A stretch of 64,000 nucleotides of DNA. It comes from Escherichia phage 4MG. Below are positions 3,838 to 41,122 of the stretch, one piece after another; the stretch's first letter is position 1; each line of letters starts with the position of its first letter. Location: sequence record NC_022968.1, one strand, 5' to 3'. Both the position numbers and the translations under genes were made by a program. The notes beneath the pieces were generated by a model. The model ran no database searches and was not told the origin of the DNA. It saw only the letters and a program-made list of their open reading frames with translations.

Positions 3838-4105
3838 CGAGGTCTACATTCCCCGTTTTCGTGTTTACCCAGCGGGTTTCTGTCTTTGTTGCGTGCATTG
3901 TATGTCCACAACCAAAGGAAATGATGCAAACACCTGGGCCGTGGGCTTCAAGATCAGCTTCAAATTCCTGTTTACAGACTTTACACTCCATCATCACTGG
4001 TCCAAACATCTTAGGCTCCTTAATATAATATGGATTTGTTGGTGTGTTATTACACGTAAGGCAATCTCGTACTGGGACTTCATGCCACTTGCATGGATTT
4101 TCCAT
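3794..4105 (-). CDS. hypothetical Cys-rich protein, zinc-ribbon-like (103 aa; true start may be internal Met)
   Basis: Track ORF; CKVCKQ ... CGH cysteine pairs. Confidence 0.4.
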   Translation of the reverse strand: MENPCKWHEVPVRDCLTCNNTPTNPYYIKEPKMFGPVMMECKVCKQEFEADLEAHGPGVCIISFGCGHTMHATKTETRWVNTKTGNVDLVETEKQIKGSDFSA

Positions 4106-4144
4106 AGCCTACCTATCAGAAAAGCCCCCGAAGGGGCTTGTGGA

Positions 4145-5827
4145 TTACAGTTGAGCGGCTGCTCGTTCACGAATCGTTGTCAGGTCTTCATCGACAATCA
4201 GTTTGCCGTTGTAGAACACACGACGCAGTTCGTTATCGTCAGACTGTACATCTTCAAGCTGACAATTGTCAATCAGTTCTAGCTGACCAAACATATTGCG
4301 AACAACCTTCAGGAAACCTTTTGCAGACTTCTTACCGAGGTCAGTCTTAGGTTCTTTGACAACCATGATCTGCTGACCATCAATAACCGCACCAGTTGCC
4401 TTCACAGCCATACCCAGTGAATCGCGGGTTGTGTACTGGGTAGTAAAGGAACCAACACCGTACACGATATTGCTGGATGCAAAGCCTTTATCTTTCAGAC
4501 GTTCAAAGATGTCTTTTGCACGAGCAACAGTGATAGAGTCACCGTAGATCAGGCCAACATGACTATCCAGAACTTTGTAACCCTTGGAGTTAACTTCACC
4601 ACCAAAGATTTCCCACAGACACTGGATTGCACCTTTGACTTCATGGTCTTGCAGATCGGAAGGCTCAAGATCAAGGTAATCCGTATCTTCATCGAATTCG
4701 ATGTTGTAATACTTACCTTTGACTGATACAACTTCACCTTTCTCGCTTTCCCATGCTGCGTCTTTGGCTTCAGACAGCGTTTCGAAATCACCAATATAAC
4801 GATACCCCGCAATGATATGTTCCGGAATGCCTGAATCAGGACGGAACACAACACGACCGTCACGAGCCATGATTTCTTCTTTCAGAATCAGTGCTGCACG
4901 GGTAATAATCGCCCAGAAGTCATAGCTGTCTGCTACGTAGGAAACAAAACCTTTCGGGAAAATTTCCGTGATGTAGCGTTTCAGGAATTCAACTTCAGCC
5001 AGGAAACGCAGTTCATCCAGGGACAAATCAGGATTTTCAGTTTTCAGGCGACCGACGATAAAGCCAATGTTAGTTGTTGCAACACTGTGTTCTGATGCAG
5101 GAATAGAACCAGCAACGAACTTACCTTTCATGTTGTAATAACGGTTCGCATACAGAATCGCAGGAATGGTATCTGTACCCATTGAGTTGATCAGTTGACC
5201 AAACTCACTCTGTGCCGCGTCGTGAGTACCAGATTCACCGCGATAAGCGAAGCAGTGGTTCTGGAACGGAACATGCAGGTTGTTATCACAAGTTTCGGCA
5301 GCGTATGCTTCAGACAGTTTGCGATACTGCCAGAAGGTAGTTGCAGTTGTGATGGTTTTCCATGTCTCTGCGGAGATCACGCTTTCCAGGAAGTTCGGCA
5401 ACCAGTAAAAATCAGGGTGCGTGTTCTGAATGGTGAACAGCGGAACCTGTACCGGGGACAGAGTGCCTTCAGGAATCGAACGGATTTCCAGTGGCAGGTA
5501 ACCAAGGTCATGCAGCTTTTCAAAGCCCCAGGTTTCAACCATGTCCGGGCCGATGCTCAGTTCACAAATTTCTTTGTACTGTGCGATAGCCGCTTTCTTT
5601 TTCATTTTGAAAAAGTTTTCGTTGAACAGGTCGATCAGGAACCATTTGATGAAACCTTGCAAGCCAGCCATCATCACACGCTGATCGTTATCAGCGAAGT
5701 GAATGAAGTGCTTTGCATTGCGTGGTGTCATGTTGTCCTGAACAATTTCAGAACGTCGGTCATACATGGAGATGTGTGAAGGTTTGTAAAAGTCAGCGAA
5801 TACGAGTGGGCTTTCTTTATGCAGCAT
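4145..5827 (-). CDS. nicotinamide phosphoribosyltransferase (NAMPT) family protein; candidate nicotinamide ADP-ribose transferase of an NAD+ reconstitution pathway
   Basis: 560-aa track ORF with AAGGAGA SD; NAMPT motif set FADFYKPSH, PLEIRSIPEGT, FTIQNTHPDFYWLPNF, AYRGESG, ASEHSVATT, VADSYDFW, FRPDSGIP. Confidence 0.88.
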   Translation of the reverse strand: MLHKESPLVFADFYKPSHISMYDRRSEIVQDNMTPRNAKHFIHFADNDQRVMMAGLQGFIKWFLIDLFNENFFKMKKKAAIAQYKEICELSIGPDMVETWGFEKLHDLGYLPLEIRSIPEGTLSPVQVPLFTIQNTHPDFYWLPNFLESVISAETWKTITTATTFWQYRKLSEAYAAETCDNNLHVPFQNHCFAYRGESGTHDAAQSEFGQLINSMGTDTIPAILYANRYYNMKGKFVAGSIPASEHSVATTNIGFIVGRLKTENPDLSLDELRFLAEVEFLKRYITEIFPKGFVSYVADSYDFWAIITRAALILKEEIMARDGRVVFRPDSGIPEHIIAGYRYIGDFETLSEAKDAAWESEKGEVVSVKGKYYNIEFDEDTDYLDLEPSDLQDHEVKGAIQCLWEIFGGEVNSKGYKVLDSHVGLIYGDSITVARAKDIFERLKDKGFASSNIVYGVGSFTTQYTTRDSLGMAVKATGAVIDGQQIMVVKEPKTDLGKKSAKGFLKVVRNMFGQLELIDNCQLEDVQSDDNELRRVFYNGKLIVDEDLTTIRERAAAQL

Positions 5828-5880
5828 GTTTTGTTTCTCCTTTGTGTGTTTTGATGGGGTGATTCTACACCCCGTTTCGT

Positions 5881-6414
5881 TTAGATGTCAAGTGAAAAAT
5901 CTAAAGATTTAGATTCTTCTGTTACAACCGTTGTTTCTTTAACCAGACGACAGCCTTTCACCTTGATTTCTTTGGCTGGTGACCACTTAGTCGCACGGAT
6001 ATAGAATGTGTTTGCACGAATAACCATGAACCGGGCTACATCTTCAGGTGGTTCCTCGTTAATAAAAATCGCAACACTTTCGTATGCAGGCCACTTCATA
6101 GGGTTTTCATCGGTAACATCGGAATGTATACCATTACCGTTGTTAGTGCGACCCGGTGTAGGCCAGATAGTACAAGGTCGATAGCAGGCGTGGTCATCAG
6201 GAACCTGAATAACGTGATTTTCTAACCACGAGCAAATTTTTTCCAGGTCAAAATCATAATGGTCTTCTTTCAGGTCTTCAATATCTGTACGATATTCAGC
6301 CCCAACACCACACTCACCGATTTGCCCGGTAATATGAGCGCACATGTCACGCTCAAAGTTTCCTGCGTATGAGTCAGTATCGACAACAAAAATAAAACGA
6401 GTTGATTCAGTCAT
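5881..6414 (-). CDS. hypothetical protein (177 aa) embedded between the NAMPT-like and Prs-like genes
   Basis: Track ORF; stop/start abuts 6414-7214; no motif recognised (no Nudix box, no P-loop). Confidence 0.5.
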   Translation of the reverse strand: MTESTRFIFVVDTDSYAGNFERDMCAHITGQIGECGVGAEYRTDIEDLKEDHYDFDLEKICSWLENHVIQVPDDHACYRPCTIWPTPGRTNNGNGIHSDVTDENPMKWPAYESVAIFINEEPPEDVARFMVIRANTFYIRATKWSPAKEIKVKGCRLVKETTVVTEESKSLDFSLDI

Positions 6415-7214
6415 TAAAAATTCTCCGTCCAGTCATGGTATGCGTAGATTTCATCAACCCCGCCATCGAGGATGATTTGTTTCCCGAATGAGAAAATGCC
6501 GTGCGTAACGTAAAGGATAACACGTTTTGCACCATTCTCTTTCAGGGCTTTAGCCAGGGCGATGAAGGTACGACCACCATCACAGATATCATCGACGACA
6601 ACGCATTCGCGTCCTTCAACATCACCAAAGATTGCTGTCCCCGTAATTTCGTTTGTTTTCAGGTCACGAACCTTACCAGCTTCAACCAGAGGGAGTCGCA
6701 TACGGTCGGCAACCTTCTGTGCCTTCTTGCGAGCGCCTGCGTCTGGTGCAACAATGGTCACATCTTTCCCGGCAAGTTGATCATGGAATTCTGCAACAAG
6801 AATCTCTTGTCCACGAATCTGAACATTGTCCAGCAGTGCAGCAGAAACATCACTGTGTGGGTCATCAACAATCACTTTGTCGAAGCCAAGCGAGTTGACG
6901 AGGTTTGCAAAAACCTTGATAGATAGTGACTGTCCAGGTTGCATCACGCGATCCTGACGGGCATACGGGATGTATGGCAGGTGCAGGGTAAACTCAGCAT
7001 GGTTATGCAGCCCTTCAAGACGGGAACATGCATCCACCAACATAGCTAATGCCATGACATCGGTGGAGTTTTTGATTTTTGCAGTGATATCGACGAAACC
7101 AATACCGCCTTTTGGGGCATGTTTCAGATCAATCTCAACCTGTTCCTCACCACCCTTGAAGGTGAAGTGGTTAACAGGCACTTCCAGTTTGTTCAAGCGT
7201 AATTCAATACTCAT
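6414..7214 (-). CDS. ribose-phosphate pyrophosphokinase (Prs) family protein; candidate ADP-ribose pyrophosphokinase
   Basis: 266-aa track ORF, AGGAGA SD; Prs motifs PYIPYARQDR and VVDDICDGGRTF, GAKRV; shorter than cellular Prs. Confidence 0.88.
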   Translation of the reverse strand: MSIELRLNKLEVPVNHFTFKGGEEQVEIDLKHAPKGGIGFVDITAKIKNSTDVMALAMLVDACSRLEGLHNHAEFTLHLPYIPYARQDRVMQPGQSLSIKVFANLVNSLGFDKVIVDDPHSDVSAALLDNVQIRGQEILVAEFHDQLAGKDVTIVAPDAGARKKAQKVADRMRLPLVEAGKVRDLKTNEITGTAIFGDVEGRECVVVDDICDGGRTFIALAKALKENGAKRVILYVTHGIFSFGKQIILDGGVDEIYAYHDWTENF

Positions 7215-7215
7215 T

Positions 7216-7533
7216 TTATTTCTCCTCTATCCAATCGTGAATTTCGTAAACCGTTTTGTTGTGGCCCATATTGGTGCGTGTTGTATCCTTTGTCAACCAT
7301 TTTATTTTCTCAAGGTTACCCACACACCGGGCAACAGTCGCCCTCGATAATCCTGTGGCATCAGCGATACTATCAAGTGACTCATGGTAAGTTTTCCGGA
7401 GAGACTTGAAGTAATGATACTGATGACGCATGTAGAGGTACACAATCTTGTCGTTGGACGAGGCGCAGGTCACCGACAGCAACTTCAGTTCGAAGTTACC
7501 GTAGATGTGCTTACCTGACGCGATGTACCCCAT
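7216..7533 (-). CDS. helix-turn-helix DNA-binding protein, putative transcriptional regulator (105 aa)
   Basis: Track ORF, GGAGGAGAG SD; HTH-like segment SIADATGLSRATVARCVGNL; first gene of leftward block next to divergent control region. Confidence 0.5.
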   Translation of the reverse strand: MGYIASGKHIYGNFELKLLSVTCASSNDKIVYLYMRHQYHYFKSLRKTYHESLDSIADATGLSRATVARCVGNLEKIKWLTKDTTRTNMGHNKTVYEIHDWIEEK

Positions 7534-7757
7534 GTCTCTCCTCCATAGCCTATACTCAAATTGACACTAAGCCTAGTCTCAAATTGATAACAGAAATAAA
7601 TACTATATAAAATAAATAAAACAATACTCTTTTAAAAAACAATAAAACATAAGATCTAAAAACAAGATCTTTTAGTATGATCTATATATTCTACTATCAA
7701 AGAGTCGCTGACTCGATGGAACGCAGTATGAATGAACAAAAATGTGCTGTCAAGTGG

Positions 7758-7785
7758 TTGACTTGAGATTTTGTTCATGTAGAAT
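7758..7785 (+). promoter_or_regulatory. sigma70-like promoter TTGACT-N16-TAGAAT for rightward block
   Basis: Hexamers read directly; 26 nt upstream of first + gene; coordinates +/-2. Confidence 0.5.
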
Positions 7786-7811
7786 GCTCGTATTGTTAAA
7801 GGAGATTGTTA

Positions 7812-8135
7812 ATGTTGTCAAGTAAACAAACAAAAGATATTGGTGATATGGTATGTGGAAAACCTCGTCGTAAACCTGAACAGACTGACGAGGAGAAGTC
7901 AAGACTTATGTTAATTCGTGATGTTTTTCATGAAACAATGAAAGAACAAAATGTGTGTGTTGTGTTACCAGATGGTAAGTCCGAGCAGGAAGTGTTCGGA
8001 GATTACCTCACGTCATTGCGTGGTCGATTAAGACGTAGAAATGTGACTGTGGTGTGGTATAAAGACTTGACAGTGGAACACATCGAGAGTAATAATTGTG
8101 TGGTGGATCTCAGTGAGATTCGTATAACGCTCTAG
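7812..8135 (+). CDS. hypothetical protein (107 aa)
   Basis: Track ORF (ATG at 7812 after AAAGGAG SD); no motif. Confidence 0.5.
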   Translation: MLSSKQTKDIGDMVCGKPRRKPEQTDEEKSRLMLIRDVFHETMKEQNVCVVLPDGKSEQEVFGDYLTSLRGRLRRRNVTVVWYKDLTVEHIESNNCVVDLSEIRITL

Positions 8136-8252
8136 GAAGCGTTGTAAGACGTTTTTATTGTGTGGTAGTACACTTGGGTTACCAACACCTGTTTAATTCA
8201 ATACAGGGCCGCTCAGAGGCTCTGAGGGCTATTGTGGAGGGTTAATTTGGAT

Positions 8253-8522
8253 ATGAAAAGCATTAGCAGTGAAAACTCCATCTACAAAGATGCGTATGAC
8301 GCTTTGGTGGGGTTCATGAAAGCTGCTGAGAAGCGGTATGGTGTGAAACTATACCTTGACAGCAAGGTTGACTGGGGTAAGACATGGATGGACTCCAGTG
8401 TGTACATTCATGGTGATCGCCATGTGGTTAATTTGGTGTGCATGAAACTGATTGTGTGGCAACACCAACAGAAGATTCTGGACGGTATTCTGTACGCTTA
8501 CCCGGCATCGGAGATGAAATGA
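8253..8522 (+). CDS. hypothetical protein (89 aa)
   Basis: Track frame, ATG after GGAGGG SD. Confidence 0.45.
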   Translation: MKSISSENSIYKDAYDALVGFMKAAEKRYGVKLYLDSKVDWGKTWMDSSVYIHGDRHVVNLVCMKLIVWQHQQKILDGILYAYPASEMK

Positions 8523-8803
8523 AAAAGGATATCAAGAAACCAGTTCGTGAGAAGTTCGATACCGAGGCGTTTGTGTTCACAACCGATATTGGTGTGATCA
8601 AAGAGGCGCTTCAGCGACTACATGACCAGGAGGCAGATCCTGAAGCAGAACCACTGACCAAAGACCAGATCTACTGGATGGGTTGGTGGGAGCTTAACAT
8701 GCCGGAGGTTGATCGTCGTAAGATCGAAAAGGTACTCACCTGCGCTAAAGAGAATGCGGCCTTGGGCCTGTATAAGAAAACCACAAAGAGGAAGAAAAAA
8801 TGA
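8519..8803 (+). CDS. hypothetical protein (94 aa), Lys-rich C-terminus
   Basis: ATGA overlap with upstream stop; frame of track ORF 8438-8803. Confidence 0.45.
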   Translation: MKKDIKKPVREKFDTEAFVFTTDIGVIKEALQRLHDQEADPEAEPLTKDQIYWMGWWELNMPEVDRRKIEKVLTCAKENAALGLYKKTTKRKKK

Positions 8804-9039
8804 GCAGACTTTCAAAGCTTCACAGACGAAAGAACATGCTGAAAGAAAAGCAGAAAAATATCACCGCAACTTTCCAAGTGTGCCGTGAAGCTATGAAGGC
8901 AAATCTGATAACGCCTTCACAGAGGCAGATTATCCGTGATATACTCCGGCCTGTGCTGCACGACCTGGAGGGCGAGGTTCGTGATGTTTTATGCCACATT
9001 CAAGAAGAACTTGAAAAATTAAATCAGGAGAATACATGA
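8800..9039 (+). CDS. hypothetical protein (79 aa)
   Basis: Track ORF; coupled start. Confidence 0.45.
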   Translation: MSRLSKLHRRKNMLKEKQKNITATFQVCREAMKANLITPSQRQIIRDILRPVLHDLEGEVRDVLCHIQEELEKLNQENT

Positions 9040-9629
9040 TCGACCACGTTACATCAGACACGCATTGGTGGCACACCAATATTCTGGGTTTTCCCTCGTG
9101 TGATAAATTCCGGAAAAACCTGTACGGTCCAAAGGAAGTCCGTGAAAGTCTGTATGCCATGAATGCTGGCATGATTGAAATCTGGAATAAGCACGTCAAA
9201 CCAGATGATGTCGTAGCACACCTCGGTGATTTCGTGATTGCTTACGGACGCTACATGGAGCCTCGCGTTCGTGACATCTTGGAAAAGATCAACGGAAAGA
9301 TCATTCTGGTTGGTGGAAACCATGACAACCGAGATACGAAACGTATCTTCCGTGAGTTTGGTCACGAAGTTGTTGATTATAAAGAGATTAACTTCAGCAC
9401 TGGAAAAGAGAAGGTGCATGTGTGTATGTCTCACTATCCGTTTGCATCGTGGAATAAAGCTCACCACGGGTCAGTTATGCTGCACGGTCATAGCCACGGC
9501 TCCTATACAGCCCCTGGTGGACGTATTCTGGATGTGGGTTGGGATGTACATGGTCGTCCTCTGACGATGCGTGAAGCCGTCCTGATGTGCCTTGAAAAAC
9601 CAATTTACACTGCTGATCACGGAGAATAA
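9036..9629 (+). CDS. calcineurin-like metallophosphoesterase (candidate RNA/DNA-end phosphatase)
   Basis: Track ORF 197 aa; motifs HLGDFV, GGNHDNRD, HGHSHG typical of metallophosphatases. Confidence 0.7.
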   Translation: MIDHVTSDTHWWHTNILGFPSCDKFRKNLYGPKEVRESLYAMNAGMIEIWNKHVKPDDVVAHLGDFVIAYGRYMEPRVRDILEKINGKIILVGGNHDNRDTKRIFREFGHEVVDYKEINFSTGKEKVHVCMSHYPFASWNKAHHGSVMLHGHSHGSYTAPGGRILDVGWDVHGRPLTMREAVLMCLEKPIYTADHGE

Positions 9630-9630
9630 T

Positions 9631-9987
9631 ATGCACAACAAAGTACGTAATTTCTTACCTAAGAAAACATCTAAGTCTTTTTATGCTACGATACACATTG
9701 CTGGGGATCTGGAATCAGCAAGACCATTGCTCCGTCAATGGACTATGCGTGGTGCTTGTGTACAACTAGTCGGGTGTGATTACATCTACACTGGCGGCTC
9801 TGAACGGGGTATGACAGTTCGCATCATGCAGTATCCTCGTTTTGAACGACCGGAGCACGAGATCCTTGAAATGGCGGTTGAACTTGCTAACTTTTTAGCT
9901 CAGGAACTCTGCCAGATCAGTTTCAGCATTGAAACTCCTTACAATACAACGTATTACCAAGCAGAAGGTTACGAAAAGCGATCATGA
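9631..9987 (+). CDS. hypothetical protein (118 aa)
   Basis: ATG after GGAG SD; frame of track ORF. Confidence 0.4.
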   Translation: MHNKVRNFLPKKTSKSFYATIHIAGDLESARPLLRQWTMRGACVQLVGCDYIYTGGSERGMTVRIMQYPRFERPEHEILEMAVELANFLAQELCQISFSIETPYNTTYYQAEGYEKRS

Positions 9988-10187
9988 AAATTCACAACAT
10001 AACCAAGGACAGGATTCATTTCATAATGGATTCAGGGGCTTACGGTTCAATTTCAAAGGTGGATGCCATGAAGTTTCTGTATGCTTCAAATATTCCTCAG
10101 GCAAAGCTTGACTCCCGTTCAGGAGAGTGTATTATTGACTCTATTACGAATACACAAGAACTGTGGGAGATATATCATGAAATTTAA
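9984..10187 (+). CDS. hypothetical protein (67 aa)
   Basis: Track ORF; coupled start. Confidence 0.4.
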   Translation: MKIHNITKDRIHFIMDSGAYGSISKVDAMKFLYASNIPQAKLDSRSGECIIDSITNTQELWEIYHEI

Positions 10188-11097
10188 CGTAGATGATCTG
10201 GTTGCTAAAAAGCTGGTAACCAAAAAGACTTACACCGAAGGCCCGTTCGCGGGTCTGTCTGTACTGAAATATAAGAACAATGTGTTCTGGGATAACCTGT
10301 GGCACACAGATGCGCGTCTGCTTGAGTGCCGTGGCATGGTTGTTGATGCAGAGGACAACGTTGTTATCTGGCCTTTCACGAAGATTTTCAATCGCTTCGA
10401 GAACAACACTGATGTCCCACAGGACAAGTTGGTGTGCGTACCTCGTAAAGTCAATGGCTTTATGGCAGCAATGAGTGTTTACAATGGTGAAGTAATTGTG
10501 TCTACCACAGGAACACTTGATTCTGAGTTTGCACAAATGGCAAAAGATAAGATCACTGGTTCCATGCCTGAAGGGATGCTTGACTATTTCGTGAAGAATG
10601 CTGGACCTTGCACACTTATCTTTGAAATATGTGATGAGAGTGATCCCCACATTGTCGCAGAAGAAGCGGGTGCTTATCTGATTGGTTGCCGGGTCCACTT
10701 AAGTGGTGGTATGCTTCCAGAGTGGGACCTTGATAGAGTTGCAAATCGTTATGGTTGGAAACGTGCTGACTGGGACAACATGATCTTCAGCGATGTTGTT
10801 AAGGCTTCCAAGTCAGTTAATCATGAAGGTTTTGTTGTTCGTGATGTTGACACCAATGAGCTACTGCTGAAAATTAAGTCTCCACATTACCTGGCGAAGA
10901 AGTTCCTGATGCGTGGTAGCCAGAACAAGTGGGACCTGATTTGGGACAACCCGAAAGAAGCCAAAAAACGTATCGACGAAGAGTTCTACGAACTTCTTGA
11001 CTGGCTGCGCTGGGCTTACGAAAAAGATGAGTGGGCGGCTAAGGACTCTCAGTATCGTCGTATGATTATTGAAAAATATTTTGAGGATCGCAAATGA
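10177..11097 (+). CDS. RNA ligase-like nucleotidyltransferase (Rnl2-like)
   Basis: 306 aa; covalent nucleotidyltransferase motifs KVNG (motif I), NHEGFVVRD (motif IV), LKIKSPHY (motif V). Confidence 0.55.
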   Translation: MKFNVDDLVAKKLVTKKTYTEGPFAGLSVLKYKNNVFWDNLWHTDARLLECRGMVVDAEDNVVIWPFTKIFNRFENNTDVPQDKLVCVPRKVNGFMAAMSVYNGEVIVSTTGTLDSEFAQMAKDKITGSMPEGMLDYFVKNAGPCTLIFEICDESDPHIVAEEAGAYLIGCRVHLSGGMLPEWDLDRVANRYGWKRADWDNMIFSDVVKASKSVNHEGFVVRDVDTNELLLKIKSPHYLAKKFLMRGSQNKWDLIWDNPKEAKKRIDEEFYELLDWLRWAYEKDEWAAKDSQYRRMIIEKYFEDRK

Positions 11098-11330
11098 CAC
11101 TCATGTCAATCAAGAACAAACTTGACCGGGCTGTTTCCATAATTACCAGACTTATCATTGGGTTATCTGTGTTTATCTTCTTATTTGCACTGATAATCTT
11201 TGTGAATTGGGTTATCGAAACTCTGGGTGGTAAAGTAATATTCGGTGGAATTCTGCTCATCATTGCGGTGATTGGCTGTTATGGTGTTGGATGTTCCATC
11301 TACCCACACAAAGAAAAGGGTGAAAAATGA
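11094..11330 (+). CDS. small membrane protein (78 aa)
   Basis: Track ORF; two hydrophobic helices. Confidence 0.45.
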   Translation: MTLMSIKNKLDRAVSIITRLIIGLSVFIFLFALIIFVNWVIETLGGKVIFGGILLIIAVIGCYGVGCSIYPHKEKGEK

Positions 11331-11671
11331 TCATCTGGCTTGATGACTTGAGAGACCCAAAAGACTACGGGTATCCTGATGCCTTGTGGTTCAAGACCTC
11401 TCAGAAGTTTATGGATTTTCTTGATAATCGGTCAAAGTTCTATCGTTATGTCACAGAGTGGCATTTTGATAATGACCTAGGTGAAGATTCAGAAAAGGAG
11501 GGCTATGACTGCCTACTGGCCTTGGAAGAGAAGCTTGTGTATGGGAAACTTCCTGTGCATGATGCTAAACTCTATGTCCATACGTCTAACCCTTCTGCGG
11601 CACAAAAGTTCATGCTTGCAAAAGAGAGCTTCTTGAAGTATCGTATCACGATCTTAAGAAACAATTACTGA
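11327..11671 (+). CDS. hypothetical protein (114 aa)
   Basis: Track ORF; coupled start. Confidence 0.45.
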   Translation: MIIWLDDLRDPKDYGYPDALWFKTSQKFMDFLDNRSKFYRYVTEWHFDNDLGEDSEKEGYDCLLALEEKLVYGKLPVHDAKLYVHTSNPSAAQKFMLAKESFLKYRITILRNNY

Positions 11672-11680
11672 GGAGAAGAG

Positions 11681-12088
11681 ATGGAAAAGACTCTGATCAT
11701 CCTGCGTGGTGTGTCTGGTGCTGGTAAGTCTACAGTAGCAGATATGCTGGCAGAGGATTTGTGGCCTGTCTATGAAGCAGATAAATTCCACTACACAGAA
11801 GATGGCGTGTACGACTGGAAACCTGAAAACATGCAGGCTGCACACGCATGGTGTCAGTCAGAGGTCAAAGATATGATGGGGTGGAATATCAGCAGGATCA
11901 TCGTATCTAACACCTCTACCAGTGAAAAAGAACTGAAGCCGTATCTTGATCTCGCAGCGGAGAACGGGTATCGTGTCATCAGCTTGGTGGTAGAAAACCG
12001 TCATGGCAATGACTCCATTCACAGCGTTCCGCAGGAAACCCGCGATGCTCAAGAGCGTCGTCTGCGTAACTCATTGAAATTACAGTAA
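11681..12088 (+). CDS. P-loop kinase, polynucleotide 5'-kinase-like
   Basis: 135 aa; Walker A GVSGAGKST at N-terminus; sits between RNA ligase-like and Sir2-like genes. Confidence 0.55.
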   Translation: MEKTLIILRGVSGAGKSTVADMLAEDLWPVYEADKFHYTEDGVYDWKPENMQAAHAWCQSEVKDMMGWNISRIIVSNTSTSEKELKPYLDLAAENGYRVISLVVENRHGNDSIHSVPQETRDAQERRLRNSLKLQ

Positions 12089-12098
12089 GGGGAAACAA

Positions 12099-12875
12099 TT
12101 GAGGCGTTTAATTGTTATTAGTGGTGCAGGCTTCTCTGCTGAAAGCGGTGTTCGTACATTCCGTACTGATACAGACTCCGGAAAGGCTTTGTGGGATGAG
12201 TACGACCTTGAAGAGGTCTGTAATATCCATGCTTTCCGTGGTAATTTCTATCACAAAACGCACATGTTTTATAACAAGCGTCGTGTAGAACTGCAAACTG
12301 TGCATCCGAATGCTGCACATATGCGTGTTGCTGAGTGGTATAAAAACTACCCAAAACAGGTTGTTAATCTGACGACAAACGTAGATGACCTGCTGGAACG
12401 TGCTGGTGTTCCTAAGGAAGATACTCTGTATATCCACGGATATCTGAAAGAACTTCGGTATAAACTTCACGAAGATTCTGAAGAGCAGTTAGTTGACATT
12501 GGTTACAATGAAGTAGATCCTGATGAATTTCACTGGTGCAAACCAAATGTGGTCTTCTTTGGTGAGGCTGCTCCAGCATATAACGACCTATACTCAACCC
12601 TAGATAGCCTGACATCTGAAGACATGGTGATTGTTGTTGGATGCTCAAACACAGTTATCAACTTCAACTGGGAGCTTTTCCCAGCATCAAGGATGGGTAC
12701 TAAGATTGTTGTGGTTAACCCTAATGTTCGCTACGATGAACAGTTGATGTACGAAGACGCTGGTGTTGTTGTATACCGAACTGGTGCTGTAGATGCGTTC
12801 AGCAACCCTGGTCTCATCAAAATGGTTGAGGATCACCTTGAAGGTAAAACCTCATTGCAGAAGAAGGAGAAATAA
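12099..12875 (+). CDS. Sir2-family (sirtuin-like) NAD+-dependent protein
   Basis: 258 aa, TTG start after AAGGGG SD; GAGFSAESGVRTFR NAD-binding signature, YIHGYL, VVGCSNTV, VVVNPN; no Cys4 zinc module. Confidence 0.7.
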   Translation: MRRLIVISGAGFSAESGVRTFRTDTDSGKALWDEYDLEEVCNIHAFRGNFYHKTHMFYNKRRVELQTVHPNAAHMRVAEWYKNYPKQVVNLTTNVDDLLERAGVPKEDTLYIHGYLKELRYKLHEDSEEQLVDIGYNEVDPDEFHWCKPNVVFFGEAAPAYNDLYSTLDSLTSEDMVIVVGCSNTVINFNWELFPASRMGTKIVVVNPNVRYDEQLMYEDAGVVVYRTGAVDAFSNPGLIKMVEDHLEGKTSLQKKEK

Positions 12876-14179
12876 TGTCAATTAGTTTAGACACACCAAC
12901 ACTATACGCCATTAACAAGGACGGATCGTATCAAGTTTGGAATGTAACCACAGAAGGTGATGAGGTTGTCGTTTCTTTCGGTAAGGAAAATGGAAAGATT
13001 CAACAAAAGCGCACCAAGTGTGAAATGAAAAACATTGGTCGTTCCAATGAAACCACCGCTGAGTTCCAGGCCGTCCTGGAGGCCCGGTCTAAGTGGGAGA
13101 AACAGGTCCGTTTAGGTTATCGTGAGACCAAAGAGGAGTTACAGACGGAAGAGAACTTCTCTCCTATGCTGGCACACGATGCGATCAAACGGTCAAAGTC
13201 AATCGTCTATCCTGCGTATATTCAGCCAAAGCTCGATGGTGTTCGTGCTCTTGTGACGCTTGACAAGGACGGCATCCCGGTGTTTAATAGCCGTGGCAAC
13301 AAAACATACCCAGTACAGGGCGCTTTATTGCAGCAAGTTAAAGAACTTGCAGAGCACACAGGGTTTGACAAGTTCGATGGTGAACTGTATATTCATGGTC
13401 TAAGCCTTCAGAAGATTGTTGCTTTGGCTAAGAAGTGGCGCACCCCTGAACAGATTGAAGCTGAGATCGAGAAAGACTATCAGGCTGATATCAAGCGCTG
13501 TAATAAGGCGGTTGCCGATGGTGAGCATCTCTGGAAAGACTTTGATGGTAATGTGTGGGCTGTTTCCACGTATAAACCAGTAAAAGACGTTGACCGCTTC
13601 AGTGGTTATTCCAGTCTTGACCTAGAGTATCACATCTTTGACATTCCTGTGAATGCACAAAGCCCTTGGTACTCTTATGAGCATGATAAGACCAGACATC
13701 AAGATCTGTTGGTGGTTGCCGATGCTGTTGAATGTGAACTTAACGTACCTATGGTGAAAGTTATCCACGGGATCGTGGTATCTTCTGAAAGGGAAGTTAA
13801 ATGGTCCATCGGTAAATACATGGAGCAGGGATTTGAAGGTTCAATCATCCGAAACTTCAAAGGTGTCTACGAATTTGGTCAACGATCCTCTGATCTCCAA
13901 AAATGGAAACAGTTCCAGGATGGTGAGGCAAAAGTTCTTGATTCTGTAGAGGATAAGAACGGTGAGGGTGTCCTGCTCTGTGAAGAAAGAGATGGTACTC
14001 GATTCAACTGCAAAATGAAAGGCACTCACGCAGAGCGTTCTCAGGCGAAGATGCTATTGTTGGTTGGCGATTTCATCAACTTTACATTCCAGTCGCGTAC
14101 TGATGATGGTGTACCTCAGTTCCCGGTGGGGCAGAGTGTACGTGAACTTGATACATTAACATGGGAGCCAGTATACTAA
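12875..14179 (+). CDS. ATP-dependent DNA ligase
   Basis: 434 aa; motif I KLDGVR, motif IV-like FEGSIIR; size typical of phage ATP ligases. Confidence 0.8.
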   Translation: MSISLDTPTLYAINKDGSYQVWNVTTEGDEVVVSFGKENGKIQQKRTKCEMKNIGRSNETTAEFQAVLEARSKWEKQVRLGYRETKEELQTEENFSPMLAHDAIKRSKSIVYPAYIQPKLDGVRALVTLDKDGIPVFNSRGNKTYPVQGALLQQVKELAEHTGFDKFDGELYIHGLSLQKIVALAKKWRTPEQIEAEIEKDYQADIKRCNKAVADGEHLWKDFDGNVWAVSTYKPVKDVDRFSGYSSLDLEYHIFDIPVNAQSPWYSYEHDKTRHQDLLVVADAVECELNVPMVKVIHGIVVSSEREVKWSIGKYMEQGFEGSIIRNFKGVYEFGQRSSDLQKWKQFQDGEAKVLDSVEDKNGEGVLLCEERDGTRFNCKMKGTHAERSQAKMLLLVGDFINFTFQSRTDDGVPQFPVGQSVRELDTLTWEPVY

Positions 14180-14625
14180 TGGGATTCTATAAACGTAAAC
14201 CTCAGGAAGTTGAAGCACACGTATTCAACGGATCGAGCACAGGGGTTGGTCAGGTGACCAAGTGGATCGAGACCGGGGTCTGGAAAGACGCTGAGATCCA
14301 CACACGGGATATCCGAAATATGGACGTGAATGGCGTTCAGGCGTTTCCTGGTGATTACATAGTAAAAGTGGGTGACCAGTTCACAGCAATGTCCCCACAA
14401 GCGTTCAGCGACCTTTATGAGGCTGTTAGCGATGAAGATCGTCTTCCAGGGGACTACAAAGCAAAGAACGTAGTGATGGGTGACAAAGTTGAGATGTGGG
14501 GTAAAGACTACATCGTAAAAGGTCACAAAATCAGTGGTGACGATATTATCCTCACCCTTGATGACGGATCTAACATTCAGCTTCGCGGCGAAGCAACCGT
14601 GAAGGTAACAGAGGTACGTGCATAA
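14179..14625 (+). CDS. hypothetical protein (148 aa)
   Basis: ATG after GGGAG SD in frame of track ORF. Confidence 0.45.
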   Translation: MGFYKRKPQEVEAHVFNGSSTGVGQVTKWIETGVWKDAEIHTRDIRNMDVNGVQAFPGDYIVKVGDQFTAMSPQAFSDLYEAVSDEDRLPGDYKAKNVVMGDKVEMWGKDYIVKGHKISGDDIILTLDDGSNIQLRGEATVKVTEVRA

Positions 14626-14996
14626 TGATCTGGTACTGGCTGGCGCTCTTAGGCGCAACACTGGTCACAGGGGGCGGTATTTATACCGCTTTCCGTTTCC
14701 GGAAAGACAAGCTCGATGACTTTATCGACTGGATTCAGGGTAAAGTAAAACGACTGCTGTTGATTTGGGCTGTGGTGTTGGGCCTGGTAACGCTGGCCCT
14801 TACCAAACCGTTGTGGAACACCATGACCTGTCAGTTCGACGGCATGGCCTACAAGGTGAATACGTCTTATTCTTGGTATAAGAATGGGACATATGGCGAC
14901 AAATGCCTGTTCGTTGCTAAGAACGGTGCTCTTTTGCCATTACGAATTATCCGTGACCAACCGGAAGGTGATCACGCAACAGATGTAATTAATTAA
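14625..14996 (+). CDS. membrane protein (123 aa)
   Basis: Track ORF; two predicted TM helices. Confidence 0.45.
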   Translation: MIWYWLALLGATLVTGGGIYTAFRFRKDKLDDFIDWIQGKVKRLLLIWAVVLGLVTLALTKPLWNTMTCQFDGMAYKVNTSYSWYKNGTYGDKCLFVAKNGALLPLRIIRDQPEGDHATDVIN

Positions 14997-15005
14997 GGAG
15001 AATCA

Positions 15006-15695
15006 ATGAGTAAGGTTTACGAAACACTTTTAGCGATGACAAAACCAACAGATCTGTACGCATATGCGGAGCATGTTATCGAATGGAACCATGTTGCATA
15101 TCGTGCTCGCAATAATGTGGCAACACCATTCGATCTGCAATGGGGCTTTATTCGTGAAGAATTCAACGAACTCGTTGACGCACTCCGTGTTGGTGACCGT
15201 ATCGAAACTGTTGACGCTGCCTGTGATCTCTTTGTTGTAGCTTCATACGCTTGCCAGTTGAAGAGTCCTGAGTATCTTCGTGAAGCCTGTATTCCTTCAC
15301 CGACACTGACGTTCACTATTGGCGATCTTGAGCACAACCTGTATGGCAATATGCGAGACCCGGTTTATGTTCTTAAGCTGGTAACTGCATTATGTTATCG
15401 CCTTGATATTAATCTTGACTACAATATGCGACAGGTGTTACATTCAAACGATACCAAATACCCATATGTGCAAGATATCCTTGCCTTGTGGCCTGGTAAG
15501 GCGAAAGCCGAAGCTTTACGTCAAGAATGTAAGGCAATCGAAGATCGTTCCAATGGTCGTTATGAGGGTGTTGGTTTCCGCGAGGTAATTGATATCCGCA
15601 ACCCGGATGTTAAAGGTTCACGCCTTGTCTTCTTCGATAGAAACGGAAAAATCATGAAGCCAAGCACTTTCGAAAGTCCGAAAATTATTGCTTGA
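15006..15695 (+). CDS. mazG: MazG-like nucleoside triphosphate pyrophosphohydrolase
   Basis: 229 aa; EExxE-type motif REEFNELVDA followed by ETVDAACD. Confidence 0.55.
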   Translation: MSKVYETLLAMTKPTDLYAYAEHVIEWNHVAYRARNNVATPFDLQWGFIREEFNELVDALRVGDRIETVDAACDLFVVASYACQLKSPEYLREACIPSPTLTFTIGDLEHNLYGNMRDPVYVLKLVTALCYRLDINLDYNMRQVLHSNDTKYPYVQDILALWPGKAKAEALRQECKAIEDRSNGRYEGVGFREVIDIRNPDVKGSRLVFFDRNGKIMKPSTFESPKIIA

Positions 15696-15719
15696 CAATG
15701 GATAAGGGGTCTGTATAAT
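15692..15719 (+). promoter_or_regulatory. strong sigma70-like promoter TTGACA-N16-TATAAT
   Basis: Consensus hexamers read directly, 30 nt upstream of 15750 ORF; coordinates +/-2. Confidence 0.55.
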
Positions 15720-15749
15720 GGCCCCTATCAAGACAGAGAGGAGAAAGCA

Positions 15750-15971
15750 GTGGAAGAAATTATTGATTACCCAGAGATTATTGCGTTAGCTAATCGCCTC
15801 GGCATTACTATCGTCAGTCGTGGTCCAAATACACGTTATCTGATCCGCTTCACCATGAAACGTCGCTGGGGTGGCGCTAAGAAGTACGCTTACGAATGTA
15901 CGCTTGGCACACTGACAGCGTATGTTGACCAGATTGAGCGCTCTGGTGGAAAGATTGTCGGCATTGATTAA
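15750..15971 (+). CDS. hypothetical protein (73 aa)
   Basis: Track ORF. Confidence 0.45.
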   Translation: MEEIIDYPEIIALANRLGITIVSRGPNTRYLIRFTMKRRWGGAKKYAYECTLGTLTAYVDQIERSGGKIVGID

Positions 15972-15977
15972 AAGTGT

Positions 15978-16005
15978 TTGACAAAAAGAATTAAAAAGCT
16001 ATACT
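15978..16005 (+). promoter_or_regulatory. sigma70-like promoter TTGACA-N16-TATACT
   Basis: Hexamers read directly upstream of 16039 ORF; coordinates +/-2. Confidence 0.5.
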
Positions 16006-16038
16006 GAACAGACTAAATAAACAGAGGAGAAACAAAAC

Positions 16039-16401
16039 ATGGCACGTACCGCAAAAATCAAAGTAGCACTGATCACCTCCCTGCCTTCTGACCCGGCATC
16101 CCGCGAGCGTCTGAAGTCAACCGTTAACGAAATCGTTGATCTACAGCGTCAAATCGCTGACCTGAAAGACCAGATCAAGGACATTCGTGCTGTGGAAAAA
16201 GAAAACCACAACATCTCTCCTAAGTTCCTGAATTCTCTGGTAAAACGTGAGTACGATGTGCGTTATGAAGCAGAGAAGAAGACTGCTGCACTCGATGCAG
16301 AGCAAGAGATCTTCACCGAAGCGGATATCCTGTTCGGTCGCGGCAAGCCTGCAAATGTCGCACAAACCGAAGAAGATGACGGTGCTGAGGACGCTGAATA
16401 A
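16039..16401 (+). CDS. hypothetical protein with acidic C-terminal tail (120 aa)
   Basis: Track ORF, GAGGAGA SD; coiled-coil-like, tail EEDDGAEDAE. Confidence 0.5.
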   Translation: MARTAKIKVALITSLPSDPASRERLKSTVNEIVDLQRQIADLKDQIKDIRAVEKENHNISPKFLNSLVKREYDVRYEAEKKTAALDAEQEIFTEADILFGRGKPANVAQTEEDDGAEDAE

Positions 16402-16592
16402 TGAAACACTACCTTAACGCTGTTGGTATCTTCCTGTTTATCTGCATCACCTTTGGCGTCGGTGTTCCGACGCTGGTGTCAGCGAAAGATACCCTGATGC
16501 TGTGTGCTGGTTTTGCATGGATCATCGCAACACCTGCAATCGTGTGGTATTGGGCGAGAAAAGCGTTCTTCCCTAAAAAATCGGAGGCGTAA
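16401..16592 (+). CDS. small membrane protein (63 aa)
   Basis: Track ORF; two hydrophobic segments. Confidence 0.45.
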   Translation: MKHYLNAVGIFLFICITFGVGVPTLVSAKDTLMLCAGFAWIIATPAIVWYWARKAFFPKKSEA

Positions 16593-16756
16593 TGTTACTA
16601 AACCTGAAAGCGTCTACCTGGGAAAAGTTGCAGCACTTAGCGCGAGTTAAGAATAAGTCTGCTGCTGCCCTTGTAGCAAAAATTGTTGACGAACATGTTG
16701 ACGAGAAAGTAAAAACTACCTATAAAATTGAAGAGGAGAACCAAACCAATGCTTAA
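16592..16756 (+). CDS. ribbon-helix-helix-like small DNA-binding protein (54 aa)
   Basis: Not in track; TAATG coupling; N-terminal pattern LNLKASTWEKLQHLARVKNKSAAALVAKIV resembles Arc/CopG RHH fold. Confidence 0.4.
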   Translation: MLLNLKASTWEKLQHLARVKNKSAAALVAKIVDEHVDEKVKTTYKIEEENQTNA

Positions 16757-17639
16757 GAATATCAAACGTGTGATTTTTGCTGGCCTGATCGCTCTGGGTG
16801 CCGTTGGCCTGACTGGTTGTGAACGTGCAACTGTCCCGGCAGGTTATGTGGGTGTGAAGGTTGACCTGTATGGCGACGAAAAGGGTGTTCAGCAGCAGGA
16901 AGTGGGTGTTGGTAAATACTGGCTGACCTGGAACGAAGAAATCTATCAGTTCCCTACATTCAACCAGTTAAACAACTACGACCAACCGTTTAACTTCCAG
17001 ACCAAGGATTCTATGACGGTCTCTGCGAAGGTTGGTGTTGAGTATTACGTTGACCGCTCCAAGGTCACCAAGATCTTCCAGACCTACCGTAAAGGTGTTC
17101 AGGAAATCACTGATGTCAACATTCGTCAGAACATCTCTGATGCACTGATCAAAGAAGCGGGTACGATGGATATCGGTACGCTGGCTGGCGATGGTAAATC
17201 TCAGCTTCTGGATCGTGTGACGAAGACCCTGAAAGCGAAGCTTGACCCGATTGGTATCGTGATCGTGAAACTGTCTTACACTGATGATCTGCGTTATCCA
17301 CCACAGGTAACCGCATCCATCAACGCGAAGATCGAAGCGACTCAGAAAGCGCTGCTGCGTGAAAACGAAATCCAGCAGACCAAAGCTGAAGCTCAGAAAC
17401 AGATCGAAGCCGCTCGCGGTGAAGCTGAATCTAAGCGACTGCAAGCTCAGGGTGAGGCAGATGCTAAAGTAGCACTGGCAAAAGGTGAAGCAGAATCCAT
17501 CCAACTGCGTGGTGATTCTCTCCGCAAAAACCCAGAAATTATGCAACTGGAAGCGATCAACAAGTGGAACGGTGTGACCCCGGTCTATATGACCAGCGGT
17601 TCTCAGACCCCATTCGTTACCCTGCCAGCAGGTAAATAA
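16749..17639 (+). CDS. SPFH (band-7/prohibitin-like) domain lipoprotein
   Basis: 296 aa; lipobox LTGC after hydrophobic signal; SPFH-like core followed by long Ala/Glu/Gln coiled coil. Confidence 0.7.
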   Translation: MLKNIKRVIFAGLIALGAVGLTGCERATVPAGYVGVKVDLYGDEKGVQQQEVGVGKYWLTWNEEIYQFPTFNQLNNYDQPFNFQTKDSMTVSAKVGVEYYVDRSKVTKIFQTYRKGVQEITDVNIRQNISDALIKEAGTMDIGTLAGDGKSQLLDRVTKTLKAKLDPIGIVIVKLSYTDDLRYPPQVTASINAKIEATQKALLRENEIQQTKAEAQKQIEAARGEAESKRLQAQGEADAKVALAKGEAESIQLRGDSLRKNPEIMQLEAINKWNGVTPVYMTSGSQTPFVTLPAGK

Positions 17640-17702
17640 GAGTTGACAAAAGGCCCGGTGATAGATTATCATCGGGTCTCAACTTAACAAAGGAGATACA
17701 AA

Positions 17703-17897
17703 ATGATCCGCACAACAATTCTTTTAGCAGTAGCTCTGCTCTCTTCTCCGGCGTTCGCCACAGTTAATACACTCTCTTTGGTAGATGAATACACCGATGG
17801 GAGTTCTAAAGTATGCATCTACAGCGACGGTAACCGTACCGAAAGCGTTGTGAAAGAAGGTGCTGGCTCATGTCCGTCTAAAAAGACGTTCCACTAA
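17703..17897 (+). CDS. small secreted protein (64 aa)
   Basis: Track ORF; signal peptide ending AFA. Confidence 0.45.
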   Translation: MIRTTILLAVALLSSPAFATVNTLSLVDEYTDGSSKVCIYSDGNRTESVVKEGAGSCPSKKTFH

Positions 17898-17908
17898 GAG
17901 GATGAACC

Positions 17909-18415
17909 ATGAGAGTAACTGATCAGCATGTTTTCTTCTTCACTTATCGTGATATGTTCAGCAACCACTTTCGACAGATAATTCCTATTCGTTGTGGTGG
18001 CTATGAGTTCTTCACGGTGGAGCACTTTATGATGTTCCAAAAAGCAATGCTCTTTGATGACAAAGAGATTGCTGCACGTATTGCCACAGTTGATAATCCA
18101 AACGAGGCAAAAGCGCTGGGTCGTAAAGTCAGGGACTTTGACAACAGTGTTTGGGAAGAAAACAGAATGGACATTGTAACAAACGGTCTTGTTCTGAAAA
18201 TGAAGGCTAACCGCTCTATTCTGGAGTCTGCACTGACTCACAGAGATGCTGGGCGGCGATTTGTAGAGGCATCCCCGTATGATGCAATCTGGGGTGTAAA
18301 ACTGAATGAATATGATCCACGCATTGATGATCCTGCTAACTGGCAAGGTCTTAATCTTCTCGGTGAGTGCTGGGAAAGAGCAATTGATGTTGTGATCGCA
18401 GCTTCGTGGAGGTGA
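17909..18415 (+). CDS. NADAR-domain (YbiA-like) protein
   Basis: 168 aa; motifs MFSNHF, TVEHFMMFQKA, DAIWGV, GLNLLGECWERA matching the YbiA/NADAR pattern. Confidence 0.75.
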   Translation: MRVTDQHVFFFTYRDMFSNHFRQIIPIRCGGYEFFTVEHFMMFQKAMLFDDKEIAARIATVDNPNEAKALGRKVRDFDNSVWEENRMDIVTNGLVLKMKANRSILESALTHRDAGRRFVEASPYDAIWGVKLNEYDPRIDDPANWQGLNLLGECWERAIDVVIAASWR

Positions 18416-18416
18416 G

Positions 18417-18854
18417 TTGAAATTAGAGATTGAACTTGTTCCAAAAACAGCTTGGTTTACTAACTTACGCTCTCACCTCACTAAATCCCAATGGGATGTC
18501 GTAAGAAAGAAATGCTATGCCAAAGCCAATTACAGATGTGAGATTTGTGGTGGTAAAGGGAATAAGCACCCTGTTGAGTGTCACGAAATCTGGGACTTTG
18601 GTAATGGTAAGATCACGCTGAAAGGTCTTATCGCGCTCTGCCCGTCATGTCACGAAGTAAAACATATCGGCCTTGCTGGTATTCGTGGAAGAGGAGAGAT
18701 TGCCCTTCGTCACTTCATGAGGGTCAACAATGTCTCCCGACAGGTTGCAGAGAAATACGTGAGCGAGGCATTTGCCTTGTATCATGAACGGAGTAAGCGA
18801 GAGAAATGGGAACTGGATGTCCGGTATTTGGACGAGTATTTGAGTAACGATTGA
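18417..18854 (+). CDS. HNH endonuclease (homing-endonuclease-like)
   Basis: 145 aa; CEICGG ... HPVECHEIWDF ... CPSCHEVKH HNH/zinc motifs. Confidence 0.7.
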   Translation: MKLEIELVPKTAWFTNLRSHLTKSQWDVVRKKCYAKANYRCEICGGKGNKHPVECHEIWDFGNGKITLKGLIALCPSCHEVKHIGLAGIRGRGEIALRHFMRVNNVSRQVAEKYVSEAFALYHERSKREKWELDVRYLDEYLSND

Positions 18855-18862
18855 GAGGGCTA

Positions 18863-41114: not shown

Positions 41115-41122
41115 GGAGAGAT

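Follow-up and report, generated by a model that had tools for sequence, protein, structure and literature searches.

Three independently organized phage modules probably underlie the grouping of NAD+- and ADP-ribose-related genes in Escherichia phage 4MG

The left part of a 64-kb stretch of DNA from Escherichia phage 4MG (NC_022968.1; the entire stretch is called the window here) encodes a Nampt-like and a Prs-like enzyme, a sirtuin (Sir2), and a NADAR protein, and a DprA/SLOG-like Rossmann protein is encoded further right. The original prediction had assembled these five genes into an unusual, possibly coordinated counter-defense program by which the phage would rebuild NAD+, remove ADP-ribose marks, and perhaps write or read them. 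All five genes were found at the positions given for them, and their family assignments hold in a check of the open reading frames (ORFs) and in searches of Pfam, NCBIfam, and PHROG. The span is, however, probably not one system but three separately organized phage modules accompanied by one unrelated SLOG protein. The modules, which are a NARP1 operon, a sirtuin-containing neighborhood of the RNA-repair type, and a NADAR gene, are all of kinds already described in the literature. This reading is based on the observed families of the proteins, their signature residues, the order of the genes, and how these are distributed among phages; the enzymatic activities and the timing of expression considered below are predictions throughout.

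The window derives from a Seunavirus-like phage of the subfamily Vequintavirinae. Its section from 4000 to 19000 shows 86% DNA identity over 90% of the length with Enterobacter phage EC152 and Cronobacter phage GAP31 (Vequintavirinae, Seunavirus), and is ~81% identical with numerous Klebsiella, Raoultella, and Proteus phages; the annotated region of GAP31 is collinear with the window. Genes left of ~7534 are encoded on the minus strand and those from ~7806 on the plus strand, and the sign of the GC skew flips there. The strand switch is an AT-rich, divergent intergenic region (7534-7805) that separates the NARP1 operon on the minus strand from the plus-strand genes, and it has sigma-70-like sites in both directions (minus strand, 7753-7725 and 7821-7792; plus strand, 7584-7613 and 7758-7785), which are consensus matches only. 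The modules stand on opposite strands or have unrelated genes as well as several promoter-like sites between them, and no feature of the sequence indicates co-regulation of the Prs-like enzyme (referred to below as Adps), Sir2, and NADAR.

The distribution of the genes was examined in two sets of phage records. Among the 58 records that have an Adps at least 77% identical to that of the window, Sir2 is found in 55, NADAR in 56, and all three in 53, which makes the combination commonplace in this lineage and not unusual as had been supposed. Over-representation of such domains in large phages, where they co-occur above chance, with NADAR concentrated in medium and jumbo phages, has been reported (Iyer et al. 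2022; PMC9503650). In collection-wide counts made by tblastn with single and chimeric queries, Adps was found in 1575 records, Sir2 in 996, and NADAR in 715; Adps overlaps with Sir2 in 143 records and with NADAR in 439, Sir2 overlaps with NADAR in 211, and Adps occurs together with the SLOG protein in ~424. Thus 86% of the Sir2-bearing records are without Adps (143/996, or 14%, have both), and 91% of the Adps-bearing ones are without Sir2. Even close relatives can dispense with the sirtuin: FENT2 is absent among the Sir2 matches, and in GAP31 the position of Sir2 is taken by an unrelated 74-aa ORF (GAP31_168; L001:11161-11385), while the flanking kinase and DNA ligase genes are unchanged. A Sir2 remnant was considered as the identity of GAP31_168 and ruled out; the two show no similarity, and the ORF is therefore a replacement, not a decayed copy. 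NADAR, on the other hand, is retained but variable, because its identity among close relatives drops stepwise (96, 88, 78, 59, and 54%, down to 53%). Since Adps holds at 82-89% in these relatives, the turnover of the NADAR allele seems to be independent, and the stepwise divergence looks like allele replacement or fast evolution. From the distribution, the NADAR turnover, and the layout of strands and promoter-like sites, the trio is therefore understood as a lineage trait composed of independent parts. A Klebsiella “NAD+ anti-defense” paper mentions none of these genes.

The minus-strand block at 4145-7533 is well supported as a putative NARP1 operon with the gene order winged helix-turn-helix (wHTH), Adps, 177-aa orphan, and Namat. 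Phage “Prs + Nampt” operons have been found to encode Adps, which uses ADP-ribose (ADPR) together with ATP to make ADPR-PP, and Namat, which forms NAD+ from ADPR-PP and nicotinamide (bioRxiv 10.1101/2024.02.11.579819; Osterman et al. 2024). The NARP1 of the BASEL Escherichia coli phage Bas63 overcame the SIR2-HerA defense in vivo, and the pathway beats NAD-depleting defenses (bioRxiv 10.1101/2024.02.11.579819). The earlier expectation that the pair at 4145-7214 rebuilds NAD+ agrees well with the Adps/Namat signatures of both enzymes, as NARP1 is a counter-defense experimentally established elsewhere. The two enzymes are indeed there, but the span is made up of three genes, with the 177-aa ORF (5881-6414) between them, and a winged-helix gene ahead of Adps (7216-7533), which like this ORF had been overlooked, is the first of the operon. 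Adps and Namat are encoded on the same strand and are directly adjacent in the phages Ro1 and PVP-SE1.

The 266-aa protein encoded at 6414-7214 (minus strand) is assigned as an Adps-type enzyme (ADP-ribose pyrophosphokinase) resembling PRPS, i.e., phosphoribosyl pyrophosphate (PRPP) synthetase, and its matches to Pribosyltran, Pribosyl_synth, and Pribosyltran_N are all over the Pfam cut-offs. It is 38% identical to the Adps of phage ICP1, whose activity has been shown biochemically and whose structure has been published (PMC13586617). The substrate-binding and catalytic residues R87, H121, D161, K185, D212, D213, and D216 (ICP1 numbering) are all invariant in a three-way alignment with the ICP1 and GAP31 proteins, although this seven-residue test is necessary but non-discriminating because most of the residues are also conserved in PRPS. 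A remodeled PP loop, to which the ATP donor binds, is a further published feature of Adps (PMC13586617). The C-terminus is ~40-50 residues shorter than that of canonical PRPS (residues 19-246 of the query align with 36-259 of the 316 of E. coli Prs), and the part missing from this protein is the α11-α12 C-terminal module of PRPS, the loss of which is a signature of the Adps family (PMC13586617).

The 560-aa protein encoded at 4145-5827 (minus strand) is assigned as a Namat-type nicotinamide ADP-ribose transferase. It matches Pfam NAPRTase (E 1.6e-27) and NCBIfam PRK09198 (475.7 bits vs. a cut-off of 405), and its top matches in the PDB are the structures of SpbetaL1 Namat (9W5X/9W5W, E 3e-124), followed at a great distance by true Nampt enzymes from Xanthomonas and mammals (1e-47 to 1e-53). 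Residues 459-465 (GSFTTQY) align with GSFTYQY of SpbetaL1 Namat, so that the two aromatics of the selectivity-clamp helix (F392 and Y396 in SpbetaL1) are conserved; the clamp mutants F392G and Y396K of SpbetaL1 Namat have been described (PMC12774641). The RPDSG motif at residue 329 aligns with the motif of the catalytic R306 of SpbetaL1. The protein is ~70 residues longer than SpbetaL1 Namat owing to two insertions, located roughly at residues 255-275 and 342-396, and the Namat orthologues of Ro1, PVP-SE1, and GAP31 are of similar length.

The first gene of the operon (7216-7533, minus strand) encodes a 105-aa winged-helix protein with several sub-threshold wHTH matches, including PF24409, “wHTH-PRTase associated” (E 2.8e-4). 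It ends 1 nt ahead of the Adps start, and its product is homologous (E 5e-7) to Ro1 gp150, the product of the wHTH gene that immediately precedes Adps in that phage; the matches of the Ro1 and PVP-SE1 orthologues to PF24409 are also weak and sub-threshold. A wHTH gene coupled directly upstream of Adps is seen throughout this phage group, with products of 186-187 aa in Ro1 and PVP-SE1 (L010:2936-3499 and L011:2939-3499), and the window protein shows no similarity to the product of the ICP1 gene upstream of Adps. In addition, a near-consensus sigma-70-like site at 5862-5891 (minus strand; TTGACA-18-TAGAAT, 11/12) lies at the 177-aa gene's 3′ end, a short distance upstream of Namat, and could be an internal promoter ahead of the latter.

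By homology, Adps would use ATP to pyrophosphorylate ADPR, the source of which would be the residue left by host NADase defenses such as Thoeris, DSR, SIR2-HerA, and SEFIR, and Namat would join the resulting ADPR-PP to nicotinamide, by which NAD+ would be restored. All these activities of the window enzymes are inferred. The labels Prs and Nampt/NAPRTase, which Pfam, NCBIfam, and PHROG all attach to the two proteins, could instead be taken at face value: a true PRPP synthetase and a true Nampt would make nicotinamide mononucleotide, and host NadR/PncC or a phage NMNAT would finish the synthesis, as in a NARP2-like salvage. In vitro, SpbetaL1 Namat does retain PRPP-dependent activity at roughly half the level of Nampt (PMC12774641). 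This alternative is nevertheless highly improbable, given that a characterized Namat beats any Nampt by ~70 orders of magnitude in E-value and that the Namat-specific clamp aromatics are present, while the Prs-like protein is without the PRPS C-terminal module and agrees with the active ICP1 Adps at every named site. Moreover, the same labeling was experimentally disproved in Bas63 (bioRxiv 10.1101/2024.02.11.579819), and Pfam scans of ~55 ORFs of the window, outside which the rest of the genome lies, detected no NMNAT domain. In the ~30 additional ORFs included in these scans, mostly of >100 aa, there were no Macro, Nudix, ART, NMNAT, or PnuC/NadR domains.

What is new in the span is the orphan gene for a 177-aa protein (5881-6414, minus strand) inserted between Adps and Namat, with a start that shares 1 nt with the Adps stop. 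The protein has no match in Pfam, NCBIfam, or PADLOC, and its predicted structure is confident yet without a match to any known fold. The gene is present in 14 of 50,697 phage records and is situated between Adps and Namat in 10, which include GAP31, EC152, LNA4, EspYZU phages, SPLA5a, and Csp-D17. Of seven metagenomic homologues, none adjoins NARP1; their surroundings include Nudix genes (twice, in L005 and L014), a T4 gp30.3-family (AdfN-type) gene (once, in contig L012, 1.2 kb from the homologue at 5721-6170), PTH2 (twice), and RlaP (once). The identity of the protein was considered in the light of the two accessory enzymes known from other NARP1 loci. Adpp, a Macro-domain ADPR-1″-phosphate phosphatase, was ruled out because the protein has no match in the three databases named above. 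RyDEP was judged unlikely, since neither a RyR Pfam match nor a RyR fold match was obtained and the protein is therefore probably not RyDEP. A tentative idea, and on balance an unlikely one, is that the protein represents a structurally new third type of NARP1 accessory, translationally coupled to Adps and occupying the slot of Adpp. If so, it could be a “feeder” enzyme that turns another defense-made NAD+ breakdown product into ADPR, or it could be an inhibitor of a defense that NARP1 alone cannot beat, and the near-invariant N-terminal motif (D11, T12, Y15, and G17-N18-F19-E20-R21) would be its predicted active or binding site.

The sirtuin gene (12099-12875, plus strand), whose product of 258 aa matches PF02146 (E 2.3e-23; 83.5 bits vs. 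24) and PHROG 2162 (E 1.5e-111), starts with TTG, 7 nt downstream of a Shine-Dalgarno sequence, AAGGGG. In comparison with E. coli CobB (1S5P), the protein retains GAGxSxxSG (as GAGFSAESG), TNVD, and the catalytic His, H113 (in YIHG). Its only cysteines are C41, C147, and C182, and there is no CxxC pair; the Zn-binding CxxC...CxxC module is therefore absent. The suggestion that the sirtuin might write or read marks in an NAD program is not supported: it gave no PADLOC match at E ≤ 1e-3 to the profiles of defense-type SIR2 (ThsA, DSR, and SIR2-HerA), and it is surrounded by genes of the RNA-repair type (PMC9503650). The family occurs in many T5-like phages among the 996 records mentioned above.

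A type-2 sirtuin neighborhood, with Escherichia phage V5 and Proteus phage Mydo as prototypes, has been described by Iyer, Burroughs, Anantharaman, and Aravind (2022; PMC9503650, section 3.7.3). It is composed of the sirtuin, a T4-like RNA ligase, a cyclic-phosphate-processing receiver domain (cREC) protein, a nucleotide kinase, and MazG, to which a calcineurin-like phosphoesterase may be added, and the sirtuin was predicted to act like KptA/Tpt1 in the NAD+-dependent removal of RNA 2′-phosphates before ligation (PMC9503650). All members are found on the plus strand of the window within 9036-15695. The optional calcineurin-like phosphoesterase (9036-9629; PF00149, E 2.7e-6, above cut-off; PHROG 547) is followed by a T4 Rnl1-like RNA ligase (10081-11097; PHROG 562, “RNA ligase and tail fiber protein attachment catalyst,” E 5.7e-65), the GAP31 orthologue of which is annotated as RNA ligase 1, and then by the cREC protein (11327-11671; PF20274, E 6.9e-18, 65.6 bits vs. 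a cut-off of 27) and a small P-loop nucleotide/polynucleotide kinase-like protein (11681-12088; PF13671 AAA_33, E 5e-8; PHROG 2071 and PHROG 505, “polynucleotide kinase”). Directly downstream of the sirtuin is a DNA ligase that is ATP-dependent, not NAD-dependent (12875-14179; PF01068 and PF14743), and a MazG-superfamily pyrophosphohydrolase-like protein is encoded at 15006-15695 (PF01503, 22.3 bits vs. a cut-off of 21.3, PRA-PH/MazG; PHROG 671, “nucleotide pyrophosphohydrolase,” E 7.8e-25). Mydo is close to the window phage, with an Adps 87.6% identical. According to the published prediction, the sirtuin would use NAD+ to strip the 2′-phosphate from RNA ends cut by host nucleases, and the ends thus cleaned would be religated. 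Further genes for RNA repair or tRNA maintenance are present on the plus strand: a CCA-adding enzyme (37315-38568; PolyA_pol head and HD), a protein with a weak PTH2-like match (39772-40260), and an RlaP “RNA repair pathway” nucleotidyltransferase (41054-42196).

Another possibility is that the sirtuin works on proteins, as a CobB-like deacylase or an ADP-ribosyltransferase that reprograms host or phage proteins, or as a decoy or competitor for host SIR2 defenses. Its nearest solved structures are bacterial and archaeal protein deacylases such as CobB (1S5P, E 4e-20) and Sir2Af, and the protein has retained the catalytic His as well as the NAD-binding motifs. The zinc cysteines kept by canonical deacylases are, however, missing here, and the order of the Rnl1, cREC, kinase, phosphoesterase, and MazG genes is conserved across Vequintavirinae, with kindred arrangements in jumbo and SP15-like phages. 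We therefore regard a protein-directed role as conceivable but doubtful, and prefer to place the sirtuin in the RNA-repair-type neighborhood.

The third module is an orphan gene for an AdfN-like NADAR protein of 168 aa (17909-18415, plus strand; PF08719, E 6.2e-34, 118.1 bits vs. a cut-off of 35.1). The removal of ADP-ribose marks, which had been attributed to it, is plausible by homology, because phage NADARs, including one Vequintavirinae protein, take ADP-ribose off guanine in DNA and thereby neutralize DarTG1 (PMC11825919). The NADARs of T4 (gp30.3), Bas32, and Bas60 neutralize DarT1 and restored plating on hosts with DarTG1 but not on those with DarTG2 (Johannesman et al. 2025; PMC11825919), and AdfN-Bas60, whose type is encoded by the Vequintavirinae Bas60-62, neutralized DarT1 and rescued three phages (PMC11825919). 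E38 and K45 of the window protein, which align with SSEQYFMKRK of the Phytophthora NADAR 8BAU (PnNADAR), are 7 residues apart, as are the catalytic E36 and K43 of T4 AdfN, and the protein also retains a DAIWG motif. No DarT-like gene stands beside the gene, whose neighbors are a 64-aa ORF and an HNH endonuclease. A near-consensus sigma-70-like promoter (17643-17672, plus strand; TTGACA-18-TATCAT, 11/12), which is a consensus match only, lies upstream of the ORF at 17703-17897 and NADAR. By homology, the protein would act as an orphan antitoxin-like glycohydrolase that frees guanine in phage DNA of ADP-ribose and thereby cancels a DarT1-type defense.

A role in small-molecule metabolism must also be weighed, either as a YbiA-type N-glycosidase of riboflavin intermediates or in the processing of soluble ADP-ribose signals. 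The protein does score 120 bits (cut-off 73.7) against NCBIfam TIGR02464, “riboflavin biosynthesis intermediates N-glycosidase,” and phage NADARs have been argued to target mainly soluble ADP-ribose derivatives (PMC9503650). Similarity to E. coli YbiA is, however, marginal (E 0.0024) in comparison with that to PnNADAR, the best match in the PDB (E 4.9e-15) and a DNA-guanine ADP-ribosyl hydrolase, and all three phage NADARs assayed, which come from three lineages including Vequintavirinae, neutralized DarT1 or DarTG1 (PMC11825919). A small-molecule substrate thus seems unlikely, and an AdfN-like function on DNA is favored.

The remaining member of the proposed toolkit, a protein of 210 aa (32254-32886, plus strand), is a stand-alone Rossmann protein of the SLOG superfamily, DprA clade. 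The family assignment holds, as the protein has the SLOG Rossmann-like fold; it falls below the cut-off of Pfam DprA (PF02481; 14.9 bits vs. 29.6), and homologues at 38-41% identity carry PF02481. Its place in an NAD toolkit is not supported. Around the SLOG gene are genes for PhoH, an endolysin, RNR, a protease, and a methyltransferase, none of which suggests a link to NAD.

Several observations weigh against our reading of the span as separate modules of known kinds. At the level of the individual modules, the clamp loop of the window Namat has Lys and then His at the position of SpbetaL1 R40, along with a 5-residue loop insertion. The clamp loop is reported to provide the residue that stacks on adenine, which is Arg, or Lys/Tyr followed by a stacking residue (PMC12774641), and the “Lys, then next residue stacks” pattern would be only loosely followed here. 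The NADAR protein is just 38-42% identical to E. coli Vequintavirinae-type NADARs, a comparison outside which AdfN-Bas60 falls. The RNA-repair role of the sirtuin is a published prediction, for which the literature yielded two comparative-genomics papers and no experimental support, and the protein appears closest to CobB-type deacylases, albeit without the zinc module. At the level of the whole span, the pairwise overlaps exceed those expected from independence by 4.6x for Adps-Sir2, 19.8x for Adps-NADAR, and 15x for Sir2-NADAR, and a functional link between the modules may exist.

Such a link is the core of the rival explanation, in which one coordinated NAD+/ADP-ribose counter-defense program is at work. 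In its closed-loop version, the sirtuin and NADAR would release nicotinamide and ADP-ribose derivatives, the cREC protein and the phosphoesterase would trim the latter to ADPR, and NARP1 would recycle the products to NAD+. In addition to the co-occurrence in the collection and in the nearest relatives, it can be argued for such a program that the region containing all the genes is dense in sigma-70-like sites (41 in 3000-20000 vs. 26.4 ± 5.3 expected), that known NARP1 operons recruit ADPR-producing “feeder” enzymes, Adpp and RyDEP, and that T5-like phages, where this sirtuin is common, carry another NAD+-restoring pathway, NARP3 (Bas30). The co-occurrence excess is, however, confounded, being uncorrected for shared ancestry, genome size, and redundant records (e.g., 233 Staphylococcus phage records with NADAR), and a link between NADAR and large genomes is known (PMC9503650). 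Moreover, the modules are 4-10 kb apart, most records that bear Sir2 or Adps are without the other, and the swap of Sir2 in GAP31 left everything else nearby as it was. Their known targets also differ, i.e., NAD+ depletion, DNA ADP-ribosylation, and RNA cleavage. A single program is thus quite improbable, and its alleged coordination is not supported by the strands and promoter-like sites or by the distribution; the reading as independent modules is retained.

These findings suggest reannotation for this phage group, from “Prs” and “Nampt” to Adps and Namat, from “GTP cyclohydrolase II” or “hypothetical protein” to NADAR (AdfN-like), and from Sir2 to a member of an RNA-repair-type gene cluster. 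They might also be useful for phage therapy, since relatives infect Klebsiella, Cronobacter, Enterobacter, and Salmonella and the genes predict resistance to NAD-depleting defenses and DarTG1. The remaining interest lies in the orphan gene in NARP1 and in the role of the zinc-less phage sirtuin, both of which are directly testable with existing assays.

Some other features of the window can be recorded here. Genes for tRNA-Lys(CTT) and tRNA-Met(CAT) are located at 2032-2107 and 2802-2878 (minus strand), downstream of the NARP1 operon, and a perfect sigma-70 consensus (TTGACA-16-TATAAT, 12/12 positions) is at 15692-15719 (plus strand). An SPFH/Band 7 domain protein of 303 aa, the GAP31 orthologue of which is labeled “lipoprotein,” is encoded at 16728-17639 (plus strand), and a homologue of T4 gp30.8 (PF06019, E 1.9e-29) at 56052-56429, in the right-hand minus-strand block.

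Comparison with known systems places each part of the span in its own context. Among the proteins of the DprA/SLOG superfamily, such as DprA, LOG, the SLOG of ThsA, and ShosA, the window protein is distinguished as a stand-alone 210-aa domain under the Pfam DprA cut-off. The sirtuin neighborhood has the same component list as those of V5 and Mydo and comes from the same phage subfamily; the gene after the sirtuin here is that of an ATP-dependent DNA ligase, and otherwise nothing of substance differs. The NADAR protein resembles AdfN, as known from T4 gp30.3, AdfN-Bas32, and AdfN-Bas60, in being an orphan of a lytic phage with Glu and Lys 7 residues apart and in its location in the early/DNA-metabolism region of the genome. 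The NARP1 operon is similar to those of Bas63, SpbetaL1, ICP1, and DyoEdafos in that a PRPS-like gene stands beside a Nampt-like gene in one operon (PMC12774641; PMC13586617), and it shares with known NARP1 the clamp aromatics, the catalytic Arg, the Adps residues, and the truncated C-terminus of Adps, as well as the occurrence in a large lytic phage of Enterobacteria. It differs in having the coupled wHTH gene upstream and, compared with SpbetaL1, a longer Namat with Lys-His for Arg in the clamp loop, and in that Adps and Namat are split by the 177-aa gene of unmatched fold. Even this last feature has counterparts, because in NARP1-AP of Vibrio phage Gary (Adps-Adpp-Namat) a third gene occupies the same slot as the 177-aa gene, and in RyDEP-NARP1 of phage DyoEdafos a third gene, for the RyR-domain enzyme RyDEP, is next to the NARP1 operon.

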